A stretch of DNA of 61,592 bases, from the IMG/VR virus record IMGVR_UViG_3300012929_000002; one strand, written 5' to 3'. The notes beneath the pieces were generated by a model. The model did no database searches. It saw only the letters and a program-made list of their open reading frames with translations, and was not told the DNA's origin. Shown here piece by piece: positions 2,103-49,197 of the stretch. The stretch comes from a virus. The translations under genes were made by a program, and so were the position numbers. Numbering within the stretch: the first letter of the stretch is position 1; each line of letters opens with the position of its first letter.

Positions 2103-2257
2103 TGCGCAAGGATGAACTGATTGAGGCTCTGCAGGAAGACGAATCCCCGGATGAGTACACAGTGTCCGTGAGCCTCACTTCGGAAGGATGGTCCGGAAAC
2201 GTATCCGGTGTCGCAAACGACGGCGACGGCCCTATCATTCAGGTGGTGAGGGACTGA
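2102..2257 (+). CDS. Hypothetical acidic protein (51 aa)
   Basis: ATG overlaps the upstream stop (TGATG). In frame within track ORF 2027..2257. Confidence 0.5.
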   Translation: MRKDELIEALQEDESPDEYTVSVSLTSEGWSGNVSGVANDGDGPIIQVVRD

Positions 2258-2430
2258 TGAAGGTTCACCAGCTCGTTGACTGGCTCGAGAAGAACGCGGA
2301 TCCGGAGGGAACCGTATTCGTGGAGGCCAGTGGAGATGGCGCTCTGCACGGCGGTCCTGCTCGACAAGTTATCGAGAGAACTAAACTACACGGATATCCC
2401 GAATACATCGTGACTACAGAGGCCGACTGA
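2257..2430 (+). CDS. Hypothetical protein (57 aa)
   Basis: ATG overlaps the upstream TGA. In frame within track ORF 2188..2430. Confidence 0.5.
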   Translation: MKVHQLVDWLEKNADPEGTVFVEASGDGALHGGPARQVIERTKLHGYPEYIVTTEAD

Positions 2431-3236
2431 TGCCGCCGATTATCTCTATGTCCGCGTATGAGGAGGTCAAGAACGTTCTCGTTTTCGGAGATAGCGGCAT
2501 CGGCAAGACGGTTCTGGCCGCTAGCGCGCCTAAGACTCTCGTTCTCGGTGTAGAGCAGGGGCTCGTTTCCGCCAAGCGGCAGGGCAGTACAGCGGATATG
2601 TGGCTCATCGAGAGCTGGGGCGGATTGCCTACGGATAAGGACGCGGAGAACAATCTGCGCGCGGCTTATCGCTGGCTCAGCAAGGGAGGATACCGAAGGT
2701 ACGATTGGATTGATGTCGACGGCATCACCGAGATGCAGGAGATGGCCAAGATGCAGCTCCTGGCGGACGGGATTGAGATGGACCCGAATGCGAGCGAGTA
2801 CGTGCTGGAATGGCAGAGTAACCTGGCGCTTCAGCAGATGACCAAGATCATGGTTAAGAACTTCTGTAAGATGCCAGTCAATACTGTCTTCACGGCTCTT
2901 CCGATGGACATGGATGACGCCGAGGGCGAGAACAAGGTCATGCCGTTCATCGACGGCAAAAAGGGTGCCATCTCACAGTATGTCTGCGGCCAGATGGGCG
3001 CTGTCGGCTACATGAAGCAGATAGCCGTACGGCAGGGCAAGGAGAAAGTTCACAAACGGCGGGTGTACTGGGAATATCGCAAGCCGTACTTCGGCAAGAA
3101 CAGGTTCGGTCTACCGGCTTACACGGACGATCTGTCCCTGCCCGCGCTGGTGGCCTTGATGAAGGACAAGAAGCCGGCTGTAACTCGTACCCGAACCACC
3201 CCCGCGCGCCGTACCGCACGGGTAACAGGAAGGTAG
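2430..3236 (+). CDS. RecA-like AAA ATPase (Sak4/AAA_24-type recombination ATPase)
   Basis: Walker A VFGDSGIGKT and Walker B-like YDWIDVDGITE. Sits between the nuclease and the SSB-position gene. Confidence 0.6.
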   Translation: MPPIISMSAYEEVKNVLVFGDSGIGKTVLAASAPKTLVLGVEQGLVSAKRQGSTADMWLIESWGGLPTDKDAENNLRAAYRWLSKGGYRRYDWIDVDGITEMQEMAKMQLLADGIEMDPNASEYVLEWQSNLALQQMTKIMVKNFCKMPVNTVFTALPMDMDDAEGENKVMPFIDGKKGAISQYVCGQMGAVGYMKQIAVRQGKEKVHKRRVYWEYRKPYFGKNRFGLPAYTDDLSLPALVALMKDKKPAVTRTRTTPARRTARVTGR

Positions 3237-3240
3237 ACAA

Positions 3241-4347
3241 GTGGCTCGTATTAAGTTCAAGGGTAATCGGGCGGCCGCCTCGAAGGCGGCTAAGGCCGAA
3301 GGTGAAAGTTACAAGGTCTATGACGGACCGCAGCCGCCCCGGGCGCCGTACCGGATGAGGCTTATCCGCATGAACACCAAGTACAACACCAACGGCGATC
3401 CGTGGTTCAGCGTATTCGCGGCTATTGACGAACCCGTGAAGAAGAACGGCAAGACGAACGTCAAGGCACAGTACAACGGTGCGACGGCACGCGGTAGTAG
3501 CAATCAGTCCGCGGACTACCCGGAGATGTTCAACGCTTTCCTATCCAGTATGGGATGCTCTAAGACGGATATCTTGGCCGTCTGGAACACGGGCGTCGAG
3601 ACTGTGGACAATCCGAAGGGCGACGATTTTGTCAAGACGCTCGGCAAGGTGAAGATCGCGGGCGCCGCACTGCACTTCTACGGTCTTGTCGACATGGAAG
3701 CCGGCGGTATCAACAAGGCGACCAAGAAGAAGTATCCCGACCGCCTGGGCGTAGTGCGCTTCCTCACGCCCAATGACATCATGGGCGCCTCCGACTCGCC
3801 CGACGATGAGGACGAGGACGAGGAGTCGGAAGACGACGAGCTTGACTCGGACGAAGTGGATGAGGATGAAGACGCCGAGGACTCCGACGAAGAGGAAGAG
3901 GGCGATATCGACGAAGAGGCGTACGAGGAGCGTCAGTCTGAGCTGGAGGGCATGACCCGTGCCGCACTCAAGGCGCTGCTCAAGCCGTTGGGCAGCGAGA
4001 TGCGGGTGACCACCAAGGTCAAGGACGAAGAGATCGTAGAAGAGATCCTGGGCCTGGAGTTCCCGGAAGATGAAGAGGTTGACTCGGACGAAGAAGAGGA
4101 AGAGCCGGAGGAAGACGATCTGGCCGAGTTGGATCGTACCGGTCTGAAGGCTATCATCAAGGCTGAGGAGCTGGACGTTCGAGTCGTCAAGTCTATGACG
4201 GACGAACAGATCCGCGAGGCCATCACTATGGCACGCGGTGAGGCGGCCGAAGAGGTGGAGGAAGAGCCGGACGAGGTGGAACCCCCGAAGGACAAGCCGA
4301 TCGTGAAGCGCCGGAGCAAGAGCACGGCGGGCGAGCCCCCTTTCTAA
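3241..4347 (+). CDS. Acidic protein with two HeH (SAP/Rho_N-like) repeats, possible ssDNA-binding or DNA-mimic role
   Basis: GTG start after AGGAAGG. Long D/E runs at nt 3793-3930, ~4060-4130 and ~4243-4290. Repeats are TRAALKALLKPLGSEMRV...EEIVEEIL and RTGLKAIIKAEELDVRV...EQIREAI. Confidence 0.6.
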   Translation: MARIKFKGNRAAASKAAKAEGESYKVYDGPQPPRAPYRMRLIRMNTKYNTNGDPWFSVFAAIDEPVKKNGKTNVKAQYNGATARGSSNQSADYPEMFNAFLSSMGCSKTDILAVWNTGVETVDNPKGDDFVKTLGKVKIAGAALHFYGLVDMEAGGINKATKKKYPDRLGVVRFLTPNDIMGASDSPDDEDEDEESEDDELDSDEVDEDEDAEDSDEEEEGDIDEEAYEERQSELEGMTRAALKALLKPLGSEMRVTTKVKDEEIVEEILGLEFPEDEEVDSDEEEEEPEEDDLAELDRTGLKAIIKAEELDVRVVKSMTDEQIREAITMARGEAAEEVEEEPDEVEPPKDKPIVKRRSKSTAGEPPF

Positions 4348-10544: not shown

Positions 10545-10621
10545 TCAAGTATTGGGTAACGGTGCTGGTAGTGGTACTTGCGTGCGCGGGTACCGCCGGG
10601 GTAGGGTACTTAATGGGTTAA
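10541..10621 (+). CDS. Hydrophobic micro-ORF (26 aa, MIKYWVTVLVVVLACAGTAGVGYLMG)
   Basis: ATGA overlap with the upstream stop and a single TM-like stretch. Below the track size cutoff. The TAGGGTAC motif lies inside it. Confidence 0.3.
   Translation: MIKYWVTVLVVVLACAGTAGVGYLMG
10598..10609 (+). promoter_or_regulatory. GGGGTAGGGTAC promoter-like motif, preceded by the TGCGCGGGTACC half-operator (10583-10594)
   Basis: Motif copy 36 nt upstream of the 10642 start. The 12-nt half-site is identical to 48073-48084. Confidence 0.4.
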
Positions 10622-11723: not shown

Positions 11724-12079
11724 CGCAGATCGGTAATCCTCTATACGACTACCCGGACCCAGTAGCCGTAATCCCACGAAATGGAGTTACGGTGAATAAG
11801 AATCTTCAGGACAGAATGACGGTTCTCGAGGTCGCCGTCGGTACGGCTATGTGGGCGCACGGCAAAGTAAAGATCCCTCGAGATGCGCTAACTCGAACAT
11901 GTCTTGACCTGCTCGGAATGTTCGGGGATGAGCGCTGTAATCTGCTCAGCAGCACTACCTACGGGCAGTTCTACAGCGGACAGGTAGGAACGCCACATAC
12001 AGTTCACATGCCCGCCGCTGATCAGGTGGCGAAGATGGCTCCGGGTCCGGAAGAATACAAGGACGGAAACTGCGTCTAG
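11720..12079 (+). CDS. Hypothetical protein (119 aa)
   Basis: Track ORF with ATGA stop-start overlap. Confidence 0.55.
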   Translation: MTQIGNPLYDYPDPVAVIPRNGVTVNKNLQDRMTVLEVAVGTAMWAHGKVKIPRDALTRTCLDLLGMFGDERCNLLSSTTYGQFYSGQVGTPHTVHMPAADQVAKMAPGPEEYKDGNCV

Positions 12080-16264: not shown

Positions 16265-16527
16265 TGAGCGTCCCGCCGACGAGCAGGAGTTGGAACGTGC
16301 CCCAGTATACCAGGCGTTGCTGTATTCATCCTGATCATACTCTCTGTAAGTTCCCGCGAGTGACAGGTAAAGAAGGAACGGAAGGGGCAGGAAGTGGCGC
16401 TTGTTGCCTACACTGGGAAGGTCAGAAATGCCCTTGGGATCCTTGGGCACTAGACGAGAGTGACCTGCCTGATAGAAATCACTGGGATAGAGTTCAGAAG
16501 GCTGTTGAAAAGGCTATGAGGGCATGA
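16264..16527 (+). CDS. Doubtful ORF (87 aa, Cys/Trp-rich)
   Basis: Track ORF with ATGA coupling to the primase gene at its 3' end, but no convincing RBS and odd composition. Confidence 0.3.
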   Translation: MSVPPTSRSWNVPQYTRRCCIHPDHTLCKFPRVTGKEGTEGAGSGACCLHWEGQKCPWDPWALDESDLPDRNHWDRVQKAVEKAMRA

Positions 16528-19010
16528 GCGGGAGCGTTCCTACGCTGGGACCTCGAGAGCCGTGGCGACACGCCGCGCTCATATATCTGGAGGTCGGTTG
16601 GCTTCCTATCCCGATTCCGCCCGGCAAGAAGCATCCTGTTCCAGTTGGATACACTGGAAATGAAGCTAAGCGCATAACCCGTTCGGTTGTAGAAGAATGG
16701 TTCGCCGAACTACCGGATAATAGCAACATCGGAACAAGAATTCCGGATGCAATTATCGTTATAGACGTAGACGCGTATAGGAATGGCGTAGCGACGCTCA
16801 AGGCGCGCGAGAAGCAGTGGGGCGAACTACCCGACACCTGGCGTAATTCTGCCCGGAATGACGGCGCGGGTGGACACATGTTTTTCCGGCTACCCAAGAG
16901 CGCGCTAGGATTGCACTGGCCCGGTAAAATCGGCGATGGCGTTGAAATTCTTCAGCCGACACATCGCTATGCCGTGGTGTGGCCCAGTATCAATCCTTCT
17001 AATAACCAGATGTACCGTTGGTATCAGCCCGGCGATCCTACAGAAGGTCCTGGATACGCTGGAATTCCTAGCCTGAGCGACATCAGAACTGAGATGCCAG
17101 CGCGTTGGATCAAGGCTCTCACTAACGGCGAGGCCTATCACTACATGCCCAAGAAGAAGGGCGTTAGTGAGGCGGCCGTAATCACTTGGCTCAAAGAACA
17201 GCGCACGGGAGAGCCGTGCACGCGTATGCGCCGTGCGATGCAACAGGCTACCAAGACGGTGGGCCCGGATGGCGGACACGATAGCGCCCTGTTTAGCGTC
17301 TACAACATCATCATGGGTGCGCAGGAAGGGCATATCGGTATCTATCAGGCTCTTTCCTATGTTAAGAACCTCCTGATAGAAGACATTACCGATGACAGTC
17401 GCCCCGGATCCGTACGCACATTGCAAGACGCGGAAGAAGAATGGAACAGAATGCGGGACGGTGCCGTGCGCACCGCCATGCAGCGTGTAATAGATTCTCC
17501 TGAAATGGTAGGGTCTCGTTGTCGTTGTTTGATAGAGGAAGTGGACGGACTATATCGTCCTCCGCCCGGGACGCGCACCGATCAGCAACACGCCCGTCAG
17601 GTTATTAGCTGGGTGAGCGACCAGGCCCGCTACGCCAAGGACGGTGCCGTCTGGGTGATTAAGGATGATGAGCGTTGGATAGCCGACCCTAGCGTTAATT
17701 CTCAGGGCGTGGTGGCTCTGGTGGCGGATAACATGCCCTTTGGGGAAGATCCGGAAGATGTTGAGGCAGACGACGAAGGTTGGAAGCCCGAATACTCTGA
17801 GTGGAAACTCCGCGAGAGATACGAGACCGCCAAGACGATGGGTGGCATAGCGGCCAAGGTGCAGGCCCTGGTCACAACTCGGCGCAGTAGTGATCCGTAT
17901 GTCGTTAACTTGCACGATCTGGACAAAGACCCGGACATCTTGTGGACTCCTAACGGCCCGGTGGATCTGCGCGGAGAAGAGGGAAAATCCCGCAATTCGG
18001 ATGAGAAGATAGATCCCGGCGCGGTGCACCTGCACTGTACCCGGTACAGCCCGTTGGCTGGCCCGGTGCCGGCCTGGCAGGCCCTATGTGCGGCCGTGTG
18101 GCCCGACCCCGCCGTGCGCGCCTGGGCGTTGCAACTGTTGGCCGTGGGGCTTACCGGCTACAGCCCCAAAATGTTCCTGCACTTCTACGGAGAGAAAGAT
18201 CGAGGCAAGACAAGTATTCCCACTTTGGTCGCGGATTTGCTCGGCAGTTACGCTCGTAGTGACTTGCAAGCCACCCTTATTGCGACAGATGCACAGCCGT
18301 GGGATCGCGCGGCATTGCACGGCCTCCGCTTCGGCTTCGTGGATGAAACCCCCGATCCTAGACCTCGTCCTACCGAGGAACTAAAGAAGCTAACCGGCGG
18401 GGCCGAGATTAACGCGGCCTATAAAAATAAACAGCCTTTTAAGTTTGATCCGACGCACACTCTGGTATTCGCCAGTAATCCCGAACCTAACCTGACCGAT
18501 CCGGCGGTGGTGGCGCGTATTAGGATGTTGCCGTGCACCGGTAGCATCAAGGGTATTCGTAGTGCGCGGGCTAAAATCGGCGAACTTCGAGGGCGGATTT
18601 GGCAGCAAGAGGCTCCCGGCGTGTTGTGGCAATTGTTAGAACTCGCCAAGCAATATGTCTCTAATAATGACGTAATAGCTCTGGAGAACGCTCCCGTTGT
18701 GGTCCGCCGGGCAGCCGCGGAGTTGCGGCAAGACCAGGATGTTTTGGGCGAGTGGCTCGATATGCACGCGCATACTGTGTCGCGTAACAAGCCGGAAGAG
18801 TGGCGTACGGTGCAGGAATTATACGATGGTTTCGCTAAATGGTGTGGGCAGAATTCTAGGACGAAGTGGTTTTTAGGCGGTAAAGATACGCGATGGTTGG
18901 GGAATCAACTTCGGAGTCGTAAGATGAATTCTGGTTATTTGTCTCGCCGCAGTAATAGTAAAACCTACTGGAATGTGGACTTTCTTCCTTCTGGATTAAA
19001 GGTTCGTTGA
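16524..19010 (+). CDS. Bifunctional Prim-Pol primase / P4-D5-type helicase
   Basis: N-terminus LPIPIPPGKKHPVPVGYTG and IVIDVDAY (Prim-Pol). C-terminus has Walker A YGEKDRGKTS and Walker B FGFVDETP. 828 aa. Confidence 0.8.
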   Translation: MSGSVPTLGPREPWRHAALIYLEVGWLPIPIPPGKKHPVPVGYTGNEAKRITRSVVEEWFAELPDNSNIGTRIPDAIIVIDVDAYRNGVATLKAREKQWGELPDTWRNSARNDGAGGHMFFRLPKSALGLHWPGKIGDGVEILQPTHRYAVVWPSINPSNNQMYRWYQPGDPTEGPGYAGIPSLSDIRTEMPARWIKALTNGEAYHYMPKKKGVSEAAVITWLKEQRTGEPCTRMRRAMQQATKTVGPDGGHDSALFSVYNIIMGAQEGHIGIYQALSYVKNLLIEDITDDSRPGSVRTLQDAEEEWNRMRDGAVRTAMQRVIDSPEMVGSRCRCLIEEVDGLYRPPPGTRTDQQHARQVISWVSDQARYAKDGAVWVIKDDERWIADPSVNSQGVVALVADNMPFGEDPEDVEADDEGWKPEYSEWKLRERYETAKTMGGIAAKVQALVTTRRSSDPYVVNLHDLDKDPDILWTPNGPVDLRGEEGKSRNSDEKIDPGAVHLHCTRYSPLAGPVPAWQALCAAVWPDPAVRAWALQLLAVGLTGYSPKMFLHFYGEKDRGKTSIPTLVADLLGSYARSDLQATLIATDAQPWDRAALHGLRFGFVDETPDPRPRPTEELKKLTGGAEINAAYKNKQPFKFDPTHTLVFASNPEPNLTDPAVVARIRMLPCTGSIKGIRSARAKIGELRGRIWQQEAPGVLWQLLELAKQYVSNNDVIALENAPVVVRRAAAELRQDQDVLGEWLDMHAHTVSRNKPEEWRTVQELYDGFAKWCGQNSRTKWFLGGKDTRWLGNQLRSRKMNSGYLSRRSNSKTYWNVDFLPSGLKVR

Positions 19011-19984: not shown

Positions 19985-20680
19985 GTGCCCAACTACATCG
20001 ACCAGGGGGATTTTAGTAAGGGAGAGCGGGCGCGCTCCTCTCGGGGCGGAGCGGTGCGCAAGTTCCTGAAGGATAATCCCGTCTATTGCGGACACGACTA
20101 TCAAGAGGACGACCCGACCGTTCCGGACGAGGAGTCGTTGTGTGCGAAGAAGGCGGTTCGCTATACCGACCCTCCGCGCTGCACCGAGCACGGCGGAGTC
20201 GCAGCCGAGTTCAGTCGTAAGCGCACTGAAGCGGGATACGTCCGGGTTAATCCTAAGATGGCTGCGATACTCCGAGGCGACATGGACGTCGCTGACCTTG
20301 ACGACGAAGAGCTGGCTCGCGGTGAACTCCGGGGTAAGGACGGAAAGTTTCATAGAGGACCGCGGATGGTTCCGCGAGATATGTATACCCGGATGATGAA
20401 CGAATTGTTTAAACGTGCCAACGAACAGATGAAGACGAACCTGGTCGATGCAGTGAAGGTACTGACGGCGATAGCGACTGATCCAGACGCAGATCCCAAG
20501 GATGCGATGAAGGCGGCTCAGTGGTTGATTGAACGGGTGATGGGGAAGACGCCCGAGAACGTCATCGTCACTCAGGACAAGCCGTGGCAATCCCTTCTCG
20601 TTAACGTCACTACGGACAATCCTCAGGATTACGAAGCTTTCGTCAACGAGCAGGGAAAAGAAGACGACGACAGGTTCTGA
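19985..20680 (+). CDS. Possible small terminase subunit
   Basis: GGAGG then GTG. C-terminal KDAMKAAQWLIERVMGKTPE resembles the ...AAxxLLDRGxGKP motif I recall from actinophage TerS proteins. Lies upstream of TerL. Confidence 0.35.
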   Translation: MPNYIDQGDFSKGERARSSRGGAVRKFLKDNPVYCGHDYQEDDPTVPDEESLCAKKAVRYTDPPRCTEHGGVAAEFSRKRTEAGYVRVNPKMAAILRGDMDVADLDDEELARGELRGKDGKFHRGPRMVPRDMYTRMMNELFKRANEQMKTNLVDAVKVLTAIATDPDADPKDAMKAAQWLIERVMGKTPENVIVTQDKPWQSLLVNVTTDNPQDYEAFVNEQGKEDDDRF

Positions 20681-45594: not shown

Positions 45595-47442
45595 ATGAGT
45601 GCACCCGCAGTGGTGGTTTTGTCAGGCCTCAATGAGAACGCTGCCACCTCTGCGGGTGGCACGGGGATTGTTAGCTTTCAATTAATGTCTCCTATCTCTG
45701 GCCAGGATGGCGTGGTGTACGCTATGGCCAATGCTCAGGCGTATCCGATGGCTCTCGGAGCCTGGGTCGGTGCAAGCCCGTCTCTCCGGACAACGGATAT
45801 GTCAGCTAGCTTTTACAAGGTCGTCGTTCAGCTCGACGACTGGCAGGAAGTATTCTCTGCGCCTCTACCGGCGAGTGTAACTACTCTGGCGGGAATGCGG
45901 TCCATTGCCATCAGCGATGCGCCTCCCGCCTCGGCTGGTTACGTGCCGTGGGCTCTGACGGGTGTGCCCGGCGGGGTGGCTACGCTGAGCCCAGATGGTA
46001 CTCTAATGCCCGCCCAGCGGGCCGGCTACGCGGTAGGCGCCGGCCTGCTAAACGACACAATCTTGACAGACAGCGGCTTAAGCGGAACCGTGACTCTGCC
46101 GGCCGGCGTCTATCAGAACAAGATCTTTATCGTCACCAAGCTAATCATTCCGAATAACAATACCGTTCTGATCAACTGCCGCATCATAGCCAATAGCGTG
46201 AACGGTGTGTCACTAGACGCGAACACGGGCTTAGAAACCGGTCGGCGTCTTGTCAACTGCGATATCTTTAACGCAGGAGGCCGAGCCCTCGCCGGCGCCG
46301 GTTTTAGCGCGATACGGGTGAGAGGGATGCTTCTAGGAGACGACTTCGCCCTGGTGGGTCGTAGTCATGCCGAGCCGACGTTCTTCGATAACTGCTCGTG
46401 CAGTCACTTCCGTCCCTTGGCGGGAGCGCACTTTGACGGAGTGCAGGTCGTTACCACGCCGGCCGCTCCGGTTATCGTCCGTAACTGCGATTTCAACATG
46501 AATCTGGACGATGGCTATGTTATGCCGTCCGGTGCCGGCAGTACCGGAGCCATCTTCTTTGCTCCAAACGACGTGCCAATCGGCGGAGGAGACCCAAATC
46601 CGACGCGCACTGGCAAGATGTATGTGGCGGGTAGTCGTCTTCAGTCTTCCACGGGTAATTACACTATCGTGGTCGCAGGAGAAGGATGCAGTATAATGGA
46701 CTGCGCCATCGGCGCCGGCACTACAGGAACCGAGAATCTTACTGCGGCTCATGTCAGCGGTTGGGGTAACACCGGCTTAACCGGTGGTCCGCTTGCGACC
46801 GACATCCACGGTACCGATCTGGGTGATTACCTTCTGGCCGGCGATCCTCGTGCCGGGGGCGGAGGAGGATCCTCTACATTTGCTGGACTGTCGGACGTTG
46901 ACGTGGCCGGCGTCGTAAATGCTCAGGTGCCGGCTTGGAATGCGACCAGTCACCACTGGGAGCCGGTGGACCAAGCTTCGGGTGGAGGTGGTGGGACGCG
47001 CATGTCCATCATCTCCGGATTCATTGTCTCTGGCGTTACCGCCTCGGCGGATACAGGCGGGCAGTGGTTGCCGGTGACGGGCACTAGCAAATCCATCGCG
47101 GCGATAGCTGGAGATCAGGTCGCGGCTGAATACGGATTCACAGTAGATAGTCAAACGACATGCTTCTATGACGTCGGTGTGGTAGTGGCAGGATCTCTGG
47201 TCCGAGTTATCAACTGCTCAACATTCCCGCCTAGTGCAGGTTACGAGGGGATGGCGGAATACGTCCCGGATAACCCCGCTCGATTCATCGGCACACACCA
47301 TATTCCGTGGTTTATCGCGGCATCTGGAGATATCTCGGGCGGCAATGTCACGTTCTGTGTGTGTCGTAAATCTAATGGCGCGGGAGTAATAGAAGCTCAG
47401 GATGCACTACCGATCCGATACAGTCTCTACAACAACCACTAG
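45595..47442 (+). CDS. Right-handed beta-helix (pectate-lyase-like) protein, possible depolymerase or tailspike
   Basis: GAGGAG RBS. In frame within track ORF 45265..47442. Repeated NC.I...G motifs (NCRIIANSVNG, NCDIFNAGG, NCDFNMNLDDG) typical of parallel beta-helices. Confidence 0.4.
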   Translation: MSAPAVVVLSGLNENAATSAGGTGIVSFQLMSPISGQDGVVYAMANAQAYPMALGAWVGASPSLRTTDMSASFYKVVVQLDDWQEVFSAPLPASVTTLAGMRSIAISDAPPASAGYVPWALTGVPGGVATLSPDGTLMPAQRAGYAVGAGLLNDTILTDSGLSGTVTLPAGVYQNKIFIVTKLIIPNNNTVLINCRIIANSVNGVSLDANTGLETGRRLVNCDIFNAGGRALAGAGFSAIRVRGMLLGDDFALVGRSHAEPTFFDNCSCSHFRPLAGAHFDGVQVVTTPAAPVIVRNCDFNMNLDDGYVMPSGAGSTGAIFFAPNDVPIGGGDPNPTRTGKMYVAGSRLQSSTGNYTIVVAGEGCSIMDCAIGAGTTGTENLTAAHVSGWGNTGLTGGPLATDIHGTDLGDYLLAGDPRAGGGGGSSTFAGLSDVDVAGVVNAQVPAWNATSHHWEPVDQASGGGGGTRMSIISGFIVSGVTASADTGGQWLPVTGTSKSIAAIAGDQVAAEYGFTVDSQTTCFYDVGVVVAGSLVRVINCSTFPPSAGYEGMAEYVPDNPARFIGTHHIPWFIAASGDISGGNVTFCVCRKSNGAGVIEAQDALPIRYSLYNNH

Positions 47443-47479
47443 GCTATACTGGTGGTGCCTTGAAAGGAGGCAAAGTATC

Positions 47480-47743
47480 ATGGTTGATCCCGCACCTGCT
47501 CCGACTCCCGGACCCATCTCGCGCAAGGTTAGGTTTGTTACTTTCGCGACGTATCTCGGATTCGCCGCTCTCCTGGCGGTTATCCAGGGTGTCACCAACA
47601 ATACTGACGTCATTGTTTCTTTCTTGCCGCCGTGGGCCAGTGTTTTCATCACTCCTTTGGTCCCGGCCCTAATCGCCCTAGTGACTGGATGGGCAACCAA
47701 GCACGCACCCCAGGATCTGAATCTGGCGGTGAAGAGGCGGTAG
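47480..47743 (+). CDS. Small membrane protein (87 aa, 2 TM)
   Basis: AAAGGAGG RBS. In frame within track ORF 47402..47743. Confidence 0.55.
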   Translation: MVDPAPAPTPGPISRKVRFVTFATYLGFAALLAVIQGVTNNTDVIVSFLPPWASVFITPLVPALIALVTGWATKHAPQDLNLAVKRR

Positions 47744-47789
47744 CTCCGCTGAGATAAGGTGCGGGCTCAGTGTATGAGCACGCCGAGCG

Positions 47790-47823
47790 CAACCCCGACG
47801 TGCCCCTCCAGGCGTCGGGGTTG
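47790..47823 (+). terminator. Hairpin terminator candidate (CAACCCCGACG-12 nt-CGTCGGGGTTG)
   Basis: 11-bp stem after the last late gene, followed by TTGCTAT. Confidence 0.55.
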
Positions 47824-47975
47824 TTGCTATCCGGCTTCCTTTAGAAGCCGGAATATATGCGTTCGCGCAAGCGTACGGGGTGACAGTGATCTTCCCTCCC
47901 CAGGAGGGGAGTCACCCTCCCAGATCGGATCTGTGCGCCTTCGGGGCACGCGCTATGTGCGGGTGTGCCGCGTTA

Positions 47976-48011
47976 CCCCCACCCCATCCCCCAACCCCCT
48001 TCCCCTCCCCC
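47976..48011 (+). repeat. C-run tract (six runs of C4-5); G-quadruplex-capable on the minus strand
   Basis: cccccaccccatcccccaacccccttcccctccccc read directly. Confidence 0.9.
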
Positions 48012-48018
48012 TTGCCTC

Positions 48019-48090
48019 GCGTAGGTACCTGCGCCACACGTATCGTACACAGGTACCCGTGTCGCGTCACGTTGCGCGGGTACCCGCGCA
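48019..48090. promoter_or_regulatory. Three GGTACC-centred palindromes spaced 28 and 27 bp (operator-like array)
   Basis: 48019-48034 GCGTAGGTACCTGCGC (1 mismatch pair), 48047-48062 ACACAGGTACCCGTGT (1 mismatch pair) and 48073-48090 TGCGCGGGTACCCGCGCA (perfect 18-mer). Confidence 0.6.
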
Positions 48091-48211
48091 CACGGCTCTC
48101 AGCACGCGCCTGTGGTTATTCCGCGCGGGCATGTCGTATGTGGGGCACAAGTAGGAACCGCGCGCGTTTGTTCCGCAGGAGTGTGTGTTCGCACGGCTAT
48201 TCCGTGCTCGC

Positions 48212-48256
48212 ACGGCTGATCAGCCGTAGGCGTGCGTTATAATCGCACTCGCACGC
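48212..48256 (+). promoter_or_regulatory. Perfect 16-bp palindrome ACGGCTGATCAGCCGT plus a consensus TATAAT (48238-48243) in the loop of a 7-bp hairpin
   Basis: Read directly. The palindrome covers the expected -35 position for that -10. Stem is GCGTGCG (48230-36) / CGCACGC (48250-56). Confidence 0.45.
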
Positions 48257-48396
48257 GATCCTTATTGTGCGCTTGTGATGCGTTACGCCAAACGGGTGGA
48301 GGGGGTTGCCAAAGCCGCCGGGGGCGGGCTAGCTTTGTGCCATGCCGCCAACACGGGGCAGGGGCCACCAGCTCAGCCAGGTTGCCAAGTGCAGCA

Positions 48397-48407
48397 GGGT
48401 AGGGTAC
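48397..48407 (+). promoter_or_regulatory. GGGTAGGGTAC motif preceded by TTGCCAAGTG
   Basis: Composite TTGCCAAGTG-cagcag-GGGTAGGGTAC. Confidence 0.4.
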
Positions 48408-48545
48408 GGTGGCACCACAACAGCAACACCGCAGGGGTTAGCCCAGCAGCCTGGCAACGGGCGTGGCTGGCAAGTTTAGGCCAACGGCAAGGCGTTAGGC
48501 GCAGCTAAGGCAAAAACTGCCCAAAATCACGGGGTTTGCCAAGTG

Positions 48546-48556
48546 GGGTAGGGTAC
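48546..48556 (+). promoter_or_regulatory. GGGTAGGGTAC motif preceded by TTGCCAAGTG
   Basis: Composite TTGCCAAGTG-GGGTAGGGTAC, with the same 10-mer as at 48382-48391. Confidence 0.4.
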
Positions 48557-48603
48557 ATGGTACGGTTTTACCAGGCACCAACCGGCAGGCAAACGGGCCA
48601 GCC

Positions 48604-48614
48604 GGGTAGGGTAC
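48604..48614 (+). promoter_or_regulatory. GGGTAGGGTAC motif 21 nt upstream of the 48633 start
   Basis: Followed by AAGGGG (SD) and an ATG. Confidence 0.45.
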
Positions 48615-48632
48615 AAACGTAAGGGGCGCGTA

Positions 48633-48806
48633 ATGCGCATCGCACTGCACAACGCCATTGCCCGCACTCAGGGCATGGTCGTCAACGGCTACACCAATCA
48701 GTTGTGGCGCTACCTGGTCATCAACACGCTTGCCGGGGCTATGGTTGCCTTGGCACCCAGTCAGTACAGTGCGGCCGACGGTGGTTGGCCCACCGTTGCC
48801 AGGTAG
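48633..48806 (+). CDS. Hypothetical small protein (57 aa, MRIALHNAIARTQGMVVNGYTNQLWRYLVINTLAGAMVALAPSQYSAADGGWPTVAR)
   Basis: Below the track cutoff. AAGGGG lies 6 nt before the ATG. Gene-like G/C-ending codons. A promoter-like motif is just upstream. Confidence 0.5.
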   Translation: MRIALHNAIARTQGMVVNGYTNQLWRYLVINTLAGAMVALAPSQYSAADGGWPTVAR

Positions 48807-48891
48807 TCCGCGTGTAACCTTGGTGGGTCAGGTGTGTGACCTGGCCGCGCCATGGCTACAGACGGGTAGCCTGTTTAGCTAGGAGGCCGTA

Positions 48892-49197
48892 ATGGCTACT
48901 GCACTGGGATTGGCGCCGCGTAACTCGCTGCGCAAGATCAGGGCACGAGTGCCGGTCGCTGCCGGCAGCTTGAACAGGGGCAACCGCTACACGATGACCA
49001 CTGCCAGGACGACCGTGTGTGTTGCCGACATGTCTAAGGCATGGCACGGAGACACGGCGACGATGCCGCCGCAATGGGCGCTGGACGCCGCTGCCGACAA
49101 GACGATGGCCGCCGGCTACACCAAGCGCAATAAGGTGTGTCCGGGGTGCGGAATCATGACGCCGAGCACCGGCCGCTGCGACCAGTGCTGGGACTGA
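48892..49197 (+). CDS. Hypothetical protein with C-terminal zinc ribbon (CPGC...CDQC)
   Basis: AGGAGG RBS. Track ORF. Confidence 0.55.
   Translation: MATALGLAPRNSLRKIRARVPVAAGSLNRGNRYTMTTARTTVCVADMSKAWHGDTATMPPQWALDAAADKTMAAGYTKRNKVCPGCGIMTPSTGRCDQCWD

Follow-up and report, generated by a model that had tools for sequence, protein, structure and literature searches.

Phased GGTACC-centred palindromes in the late-to-early hub of a siphovirus related to actinobacteriophages: probable protein-binding repeats of a hub-specific family

The window, by which we mean the whole stretch of DNA analysed, comprises 61,592 bases with a G+C content of 56%. Its ends share a 123-bp overlap, which indicates a complete, circularly assembled genome of ~61.47 kb. 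All plausible genes lie on the + strand. By its proteins the phage is a siphovirus with kinship to the actinobacteriophages. Its DnaE-like polymerase shares 55–56% identity with the enzymes of Nocardia phage P3.1 and of cluster-D-type Mycobacterium phages, its large terminase 59–60% with that of Gordonia phages (Gibbin, for example), and it also encodes a portal, a tape-measure protein, a primase-helicase and an SNF2 helicase. A 231-aa protein encoded at 19985–20680 matches phrog_10899 (terminase small subunit, E = 5.5e-29); ~0.9 kb with small ORFs separates this terS-like gene from the large terminase gene downstream. Neither an integrase nor a repressor was seen, and the phage looks strictly lytic. 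A tRNA search found none, and Rfam covariance models returned three sub-threshold, chance-level matches only (16–17 bits, against gathering scores of 45–52).

Late genes occupy ~21.3 to 47.7 kb, and from 48.9 kb small early genes continue past the contig junction until the replication genes are reached. The ~1.15 kb from the end of the last late ORF (47743) to the first well-supported early gene (48892) is here termed the hub; structural and lysis genes lie upstream of it, small early and replication genes downstream. No credible coding sequence was found within it, and the indels (not multiples of three) and inversions that separate related hubs confirm that it is non-coding. The layout agrees with the synteny of Nocardia phage P3.1 (MW582532), in which a 1.09-kb non-coding gap (2231–3320), unannotated in the record, occupies the same place. 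Gene order and synteny thus bear out the claim that the palindromes described below stand at a late/early boundary.

Relatives were found in Logan assemblies by way of a large protein collection, and the hubs on their contigs, which derive from runs of the SRR29078xxx and SRR28494xxx series and from SRR22808048, were compared. Whole hubs are available from L018, which is collinear with the window and 74% identical, and from L010, a relative at the 61% level. L016 and L017 supply partial hubs (84% and 82% identical, respectively), L012, L013 and L015 only short hub starts, and the P0018 contig only 112 bp of hub. In Gordonia phage Gibbin the hub is just 310 bp long. At the DNA level the window's hub matched none of 50,697 phage records, and the P3.1 hub matched only itself. 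No close relative was found in IMG/VR through flanking proteins, the perfect 18-mer described below or the conserved hub element, and the IMG/VR locus P0014 is without a hub; two metagenome scans found nothing, and a literature search found no description of the hub. The presence of hubs in relatives, and of the P3.1 gap, at the same syntenic place argues that the hub is an old, conserved feature of the lineage.

Read along the + strand, the hub is made up of stem-loops, a 60-bp element, a C-rich tract, three dyads, a GGAAC dyad, more dyads and a promoter stretch. Two stem-loops with perfect arms of 11 bp (47790–47823) and 9 bp (47830–47852) follow the last late ORF and end the late operon. 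The 60-bp element (47876–47936; CTTCCCTCCCC..GGGGAG..TCACCCTCCCAGATC.GATC) is the best-conserved part of the hub, being 88–89% identical in the 61%-level relatives L010 and L015 and leaving a recognisable remnant in P3.1. Within it a CTCCCC/GGGGAG hairpin is enclosed by a GGGTGAC/GTCACCC stem and followed by a CCCAGATC.GATC run; the stem shows one compensated change, to GGGTGAT/ATCACCC, in L010, L012 and L015. The C-rich tract (47976–48011, G-rich on the − strand) lies directly upstream of the first dyad and is G-quadruplex-capable. It is kept in L018, L016 and L013, and is inverted in L010 together with a remnant of that dyad. Beyond the three dyads are the GGAAC-N11-GTTCC dyad (48154–48174), with a CGCGCGCG centre, and a perfect 16-mer (48212–48227), a fourth perfect palindrome. 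A TATAAT at 48238–48243 is kept in L017; L018 and L016 have TACAAA instead, and the hexamer therefore does not qualify as a conserved promoter element. The first early gene (48892–49197, + strand) encodes a protein of 101 aa with a pI of 9.8 and a C-terminal CxxC..CxxC.

The three dyads share a GGTACC centre. Dyad 1 (48019–48034, GCGTAGGTACCTGCGC) has seven of its eight pairs complementary, with one T/G mismatch; dyad 2 (48047–48062, ACACAGGTACCCGTGT) likewise has seven of eight, with one A/C mismatch; dyad 3 (48073–48090, TGCGCGGGTACCCGCGCA) is a perfect 9+9 palindrome of 18 bases. Their centres, at 48026.5, 48054.5 and 48081.5, are 28 and 27 bp apart, and in all these respects the sites read exactly as originally predicted. 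All six half-sites have RYRYR-GGTAC in common, an alternation of purines and pyrimidines before the core. Despite the common GGTAC core the bases of the arms differ from dyad to dyad (GCGTA, ACACA and GCGCG); read from the sequence, the arms of dyad 2 differ from those of dyad 1 by transitions, two compensated pairs included. Genome-wide, GGTACC is not over-represented (15 copies, 12.3 expected) and 16-bp near-palindromes occur at chance frequency (24, with 27–28 expected). Three near-palindromes of any kind within 72 bp were obtained in six of 300 Markov-simulated genomes, a count that takes no account of the shared hexamer core. On the strength of this rarity, and of the one hexamer core common to all three sites, the cluster is real and non-random.

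Folded as single-stranded DNA, dyads 1 and 2 form hairpins of −3.0 and −3.3 kcal/mol, no better than shuffled sequences; dyad 3 reaches −11.3 kcal/mol (z = −3.4 against shuffles). No T-run follows any of the three. Intrinsic terminators were therefore rejected as an identity for the dyads, there being no T-run and only dyad 3 being more stable than shuffles. The mismatch of dyad 1 could form a wobble pair on the + strand and that of dyad 2 on the − strand, so that no single RNA strand is favoured.

The downstream part of the hub contains three tandem copies of a promoter-like motif, GGTAGGGTAC, on the + strand within a 380-bp stretch (48398, 48547 and 48605; the set spans 48398–48614). The dyads lie 316–371 bp upstream of the first of these three GGGTAGGGTAC motifs, the smaller figure being counted from the centre of dyad 3. 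The genome has six exact copies of GGTAGGGTAC, each on the + strand and a short way before a gene start; in the window the motif GGTAGGGTA(C) is found at 1721, 10600, 48398, 48547, 48605 and 54072. It is kept at orthologous positions, and on the + strand only, in all relatives (L010, L016–L020 and P3.1, the last with three copies). The hub's promoter half, 73–84% identical in relatives, is well kept, as is the C-rich tract. The conservation of the motif at orthologous positions strongly supports the view that it represents a set of promoters of unusually strict sequence. Its TAGGGT fits what we take to be the actinobacterial −10 pattern, TANNNT, and on this ground we read the copies as putative host-type promoters. 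Prediction of sigma-70-like promoters across 47300–49000, dyads included, returned none.

A second locus shares sequence with the dyads. The 12-mer TGCGCGGGTACC is repeated exactly at 10583–10594, 5 nt before GGGGTAGGGTAC, and there forms part of a GGTAC-N12-GTACC dyad (10573–10594) immediately upstream of the promoter-like motif at 10598–10609. Among the sites this is the only one to abut such a motif. The number of chance recurrences expected for a 12-mer is 0.03–0.075, and the recurrence falls in the 0.2% of the genome that lies just upstream of a promoter-like motif. The site is not conserved: in L020 (a 76% relative) the half-site has become TGCGCAGCTACC, inside almost identical 100 bp, and in L019 (a 61% relative) it is without a counterpart. 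Judged from these comparisons, the link between the dyads and 10583 would be lineage-specific at best.

Of all parts of the hub the dyad block is the least conserved, being marked by indels, one of them of 23 nt, and by inversions between lineages. L017 keeps GGTACC at dyad 3 with only four to five of the nine arm pairs. The hubs of L018 and L016 are one site short of the window's three and carry asymmetric GCGGTACAAYCGC motifs. At the position of dyads 1 and 2 these two hubs have CGCGCGGTACAACCGCACG or GCGCGCGGTATAGCCGCACGC, which are still symmetric (8+8 arms) around a centre of 3–5 nt; at dyad 3 they have TGCGGTACAATCGCGC, which shows no local symmetry, the orthologous site being GCGGTACAATCGCGC. 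L018 has another copy of TGCGGTACAATCGCGC 77 nt further downstream, and the two make up a 16/16 inverted repeat. GGTACC occurs once in the hub of L010 and is absent from that of P3.1, and the perfect 18-mer was found in the window genome only. Lack of conservation is what the original prediction had named as counting against it, and the dyads as such are lost in L017, L018, L016, L010 and P3.1. What persists at homologous places is the GGTAC core, the CGCG-rich flanks and a spacing of ~29 bp; the perfect dyads do not.

These persistent parts belong to a repeat family, GGWAC(N0-3)CGCGC preceded by G/C, which is present in both orientations in hubs from the window lineage out to P3.1. Examples are GGTAC-C-CGCGC in the window, GGTAC-AAT-CGCGC in L018 and L016, GGAAC-AAT-CGCGCG in L010 and L015, and GCGCGGGAAC in P3.1. 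In the upstream halves of the hubs GGWAC exceeds its frequency in dinucleotide shuffles (window, 8 against 2.3; L018, 6 against 1.9; L010, 7 against 2.5; P3.1, 10 against 2.0) and the window and L018 each have 5 occurrences of the composite motif where 0.2 are expected, figures that are descriptive rather than an independent test, the GGWAC/CGCG motif having been defined from these same hubs after inspection. Loosely applied, the composite pattern matches only 10 places in the entire window, 5 of them in the hub and 2 at 10573–94. The GGAAC dyad at 48154–48174 is part of the same family and its best-conserved member, being found in L018 (as GGAAC..GTACC), in L017 and, inverted, in L010; GGAAC and GGTAC exchange at an orthologous site (48172 in the window, 9568 in L018). 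The density of dyads in the upstream half of the hub is 2–2.7 times that of shuffles in the window, L018, L016 and L010.

Spacing recurs as well. Neighbouring copies of the repeat lie 27–31 bp apart in the window, L018, L016 and P3.1. L018 contains three exact copies of GCGGTACAATCGCGC (one forward, two reverse) in addition to a close forward variant, and among them a start-to-start distance of 29 bp is seen two times. A global periodicity of ~28 bp that is consistent across hubs was not detected by autocorrelation.

The most distant hub of the comparison, that of P3.1, is like the window's in following the lysis genes and preceding the first early gene, in having all genes on one strand and in its length of 1.09 kb. 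It retains a remnant of the CCCAGATC element and has CAGCCGGGTAGGGTA before the first early gene. Between 2340 and 2760 it is packed with GCGCGGGAAC, CGCGCGAAAGG and GATC-containing repeats; the phasing of those rich in the first two is 28–29 bp, with three 29-nt units spaced by 29 and 28 bp, and a 34-bp palindrome stands at 2265–2298. Unlike the window's repeats, those of P3.1 are of GGAAC type and mostly direct, and the hub has neither a GGTACC nor a C-rich tract of comparable length. Outside the short motifs no identity between the two hubs is detectable by blastn.

Two segments of the hub are inverted in place between the window and L010. One, comprising the C-rich tract and the dyad 1 remnant, extends from 47969 to 48014 in the window and corresponds to 3619–3572 (minus strand) with 87.5% identity; the other, the GGAAC-dyad segment at 48122–48174, corresponds to 3792–3739. 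The flanks and the order of the two segments stay collinear. In L018 inverted copies of the repeat (16/16) flank one of the inverted segments. Orientation follows lineage: L010 agrees with L011, and the window with L018, L016 and L013, and mixed orientations were not found. We therefore regard the inversions as fixed events with no sign of an active switch. A hix/gix/sfx-type inversion system would have inverted copies of a short site around a segment that occurs in both orientations, and a serine invertase or tyrosine recombinase. The differing orientations seen here are between lineages, and no member of the resolvase, invertase or integrase families was recognised among the scanned proteins, which included all but a few late and small ORFs.

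If the repeats are bound by a protein, then the phage might encode it. That no repressor-like gene is evident had been remarked from the sequence, and searches of Pfam (~60 non-structural proteins) and PHROGs (~30 proteins, 20 of them small and non-structural) agree, having found no HTH, RHH or repressor family. The only hits among the scanned proteins were a Rho_N/SAP-like tail, DUF2786, DUF6011 and the Zn-ribbon-like first gene, and PDB sequence searches with four candidate proteins gave no match. The first early protein (48892–49197) is common to the relatives with GGTAC-type hubs, at 72–79% identity, and has a counterpart of 25% identity in L010. It has no family or PDB match, and its AlphaFold model (pLDDT 52.6) is too poor for fold comparison. 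Its co-occurrence with GGTAC-type hubs is a weak hint that this basic CxxC..CxxC protein may be the hub-binding protein.

Three phased dyad-symmetric sites of 16–18 bp in a phage control region recall the OR/OL operators of phage lambda, whose regular spacing (23–28 bp) is similar and suggests cooperative binding of dimers. Lambda operators, however, overlap promoters, share one half-site consensus and adjoin repressor genes; in the window more than 310 bp separates the sites from the nearest promoter-like motif downstream, the arms differ and a repressor gene was not found. The reading of the dyads as operators is thus upheld in part: the sites are real, phased and located at the late/early boundary, but promoter overlap, a repressor gene and conservation of the dyads were not found. 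A second comparison is with the lytic phage phi29, in which the early/late intergenic region contains phased inverted-repeat sites and the bound phage proteins p4 and p6 build a transcription-switching complex. The p4 sites are A/T-rich and flank divergent promoters, whereas those of the window are CG-rich and upstream of co-directional promoters, and a p4- or p6-like protein was not recognised.

Given the sequence comparisons, the dyads are probably protein-binding repeats of a hub-specific family and not a conserved lambda-style operator. Observed are the sites and their non-random clustering, the repeat family in related hubs and the neighbouring conserved promoter-like motifs; that a protein binds, which protein it might be and in which direction it would affect transcription are inferred. 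Binding is favoured by the core that is common within and between phages, by its occurrence in both orientations, by the recurring spacing and by the weak hairpins of dyads 1 and 2. Our preferred reading, to which we assign a probability of roughly 0.4, is that the dyads form an array of sites at which a hub-binding protein would regulate or insulate early transcription. The three dyads would be GGWAC-(0–3 nt)-CGCGC repeats placed head-to-head with a shared GTAC, members of a family that would fill the upstream half of the late-to-early hub across this actinophage-like siphovirus lineage. A DNA-binding protein, whether made early by the phage or supplied by the host as a conserved factor, would recognise the sites, probably as dimers at intervals of ~28 bp. 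With the late terminators on one side and the tandem early promoters on the other, the nucleoprotein complex would switch these promoters off or modulate them from afar or, alternatively, insulate the early operon from late read-through. For the related dyad at 10573–10594 the direct target would be the −35/spacer region belonging to the promoter-like motif at 10600. This binding-site reading is weakened by the differing arms, by the distance of more than 310 bp to a promoter-like motif, by the lack of an autocorrelation period, by the location of the sites in the least conserved block of the hub, by the lack of a DNA-binding domain in the scanned proteins and by the poor conservation of the 10583 site.

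It is doubtful, though a claim to be taken seriously, that the dyads lack a dedicated function and are by-products of quasi-palindrome correction, template switching or short inverted-repeat recombination in a fast-evolving CG-rich spacer, with the 10583 match a coincidence or the outcome of local gene conversion. The low conservation of the dyad block, its 23-nt indel and the two in-place inversions are what such turnover would leave, and perfect inverted repeats such as the 16/16 pair of L018 are substrates for such events; the perfect 18-mer is, moreover, unique to the window genome, and the 10583 match is missing from the nearest relative with sequence for that region. Turnover sits less easily with the persistence of the GGTAC core and the ~28–29-bp spacing at homologous positions, with GGWAC enrichment that recurs in hubs too diverged to be aligned (P3.1 included), or with the low chance expectation of the 12-mer recurrence and its location upstream of a promoter-like motif. 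We think it improbable that it is symmetry rather than sequence that counts, the dyads acting through RNA or single-stranded DNA hairpins or through cruciforms, whether as extra terminators or insulators or in processing, priming or fork barriers. A stem needs no conserved GGTAC core, and the weak hairpins of dyads 1 and 2 argue against a purely structural role. Nor is there a T-run or a favoured RNA strand, two strong stem-loops upstream already end the late operon, and in L017 the symmetry of dyad 3 is lost. What speaks for structure is that arms which are symmetric within a site differ between sites, dyads 1 and 2 by compensated transitions, and that the corresponding site of L018 and L016 retains its 8+8 arms around a different centre; the excess of dyads over shuffles in four hubs, the stability of dyad 3 and the tolerance of hub modules for inversion between lineages point the same way.

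The dyads could also mark a DNA transaction: a second origin of the lambda type, a concatemer junction or terminal repeat like that of T7, or a replication terminus opposite the origin. Three to four phased dyads of 16–19 bp resemble the iterons of ori-lambda, and the succession of late gene, repeats, three tandem host-type promoters and early gene is akin to the left end of a circularised T7 genome. On the 61.47-kb circle the hub is approximately opposite an iteron origin at 19.0–19.4 kb, and the contigs of relatives repeatedly break inside it. That origin, with CAGTGCATGT iterons and an AT-rich core beside the initiator-like primase-helicase gene (16524–19010), is itself convincing, and its repeat is unrelated to the dyads. 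The iterons of ori-lambda, on which the O-some forms, are like the dyads in being several phased, imperfect palindromes of 18–19 bp; the dyads differ in having no AT-rich neighbour and in being neither in nor beside an initiator gene. The hub, at 0.60–0.615 G+C, has no AT-rich unwinding element, and there is no GC-skew inflection at the hub, the skew being uniformly positive across the window and uninformative. A distance of 26 kb separates the hub from the terS-like and terL genes, and the contig breaks coincide with the C-rich tract and an element shared by strains, both ordinary causes of assembly breaks. A DNA-transaction role of any of these kinds strikes us as quite unlikely. Considered as specific candidates, a second origin at the hub was rejected for the clear iteron and AT-rich origin elsewhere and the high G+C content of the hub, and a pac or packaging site was judged unlikely because the terS-like and terL genes are at 20–23 kb.

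A broader form of the binding-site reading is rather unlikely. In it the GGWAC-CGCG repeats would be the sites of a family of hub-binding proteins extending from P3.1 to the metagenomic phages, which would assemble at ~28-bp intervals on the late/early junction, and inverted sites would also have flipped the C-rich/G-quadruplex and GGAAC modules. The hub would then be a lineage-wide, modular control region without a recognisable regulator or recombinase.

Little is understood of how lytic actinobacteriophages control transcription; for Patience, a relative, the authors call the mode of gene transcription unclear (PMC4324244). The lineage offers a compact and comparable control region, consisting of terminators, a conserved structured element, a repeat array and two to three tandem promoters of strict sequence. 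If the repeats bind a protein, they would point to a new family of regulators and give a handle on the early/late switch; if they bind none, then they would exemplify the turnover of palindromes and inversions in phage non-coding DNA. Either outcome would be of moderate, specialist interest.

Three minor observations concern the hub and its genome. Contigs break within the hub at their 3′ ends in L012, L013 and L015 and at their 5′ ends in L011, L016 and L017; the breaks, from several samples, fall at the C-rich tract or the conserved 60-bp element, and could reflect low coverage of C/G tracts, sequence common to co-occurring strains or real heterogeneity. Several palindromic hexamers are nearly absent from the whole genome relative to Markov expectation (GCATGC, 0 against 9.6; TGTACA, 0 against 7.0; CTGCAG, 1 against 11.1), and CCGCGG occurs at a ratio of 0.39. 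This depletion has the look of restriction-site avoidance and may be a clue to the restriction enzymes of the host; avoidance of CGCG was considered and dismissed, the ratio outside the hub being 0.88. Finally, the actinobacterial LexA box GAAC-N4-GTTC, sought in the window's hub, is absent there, and the short hub of Gordonia phage Gibbin carries ATCGAACGTACGTTCGTA at 11770–11786, adjoining a GGGTAGGGT motif, which is a near-perfect match to what we take to be the mycobacterial-type LexA box, TCGAAC-N4-GTTCGA.
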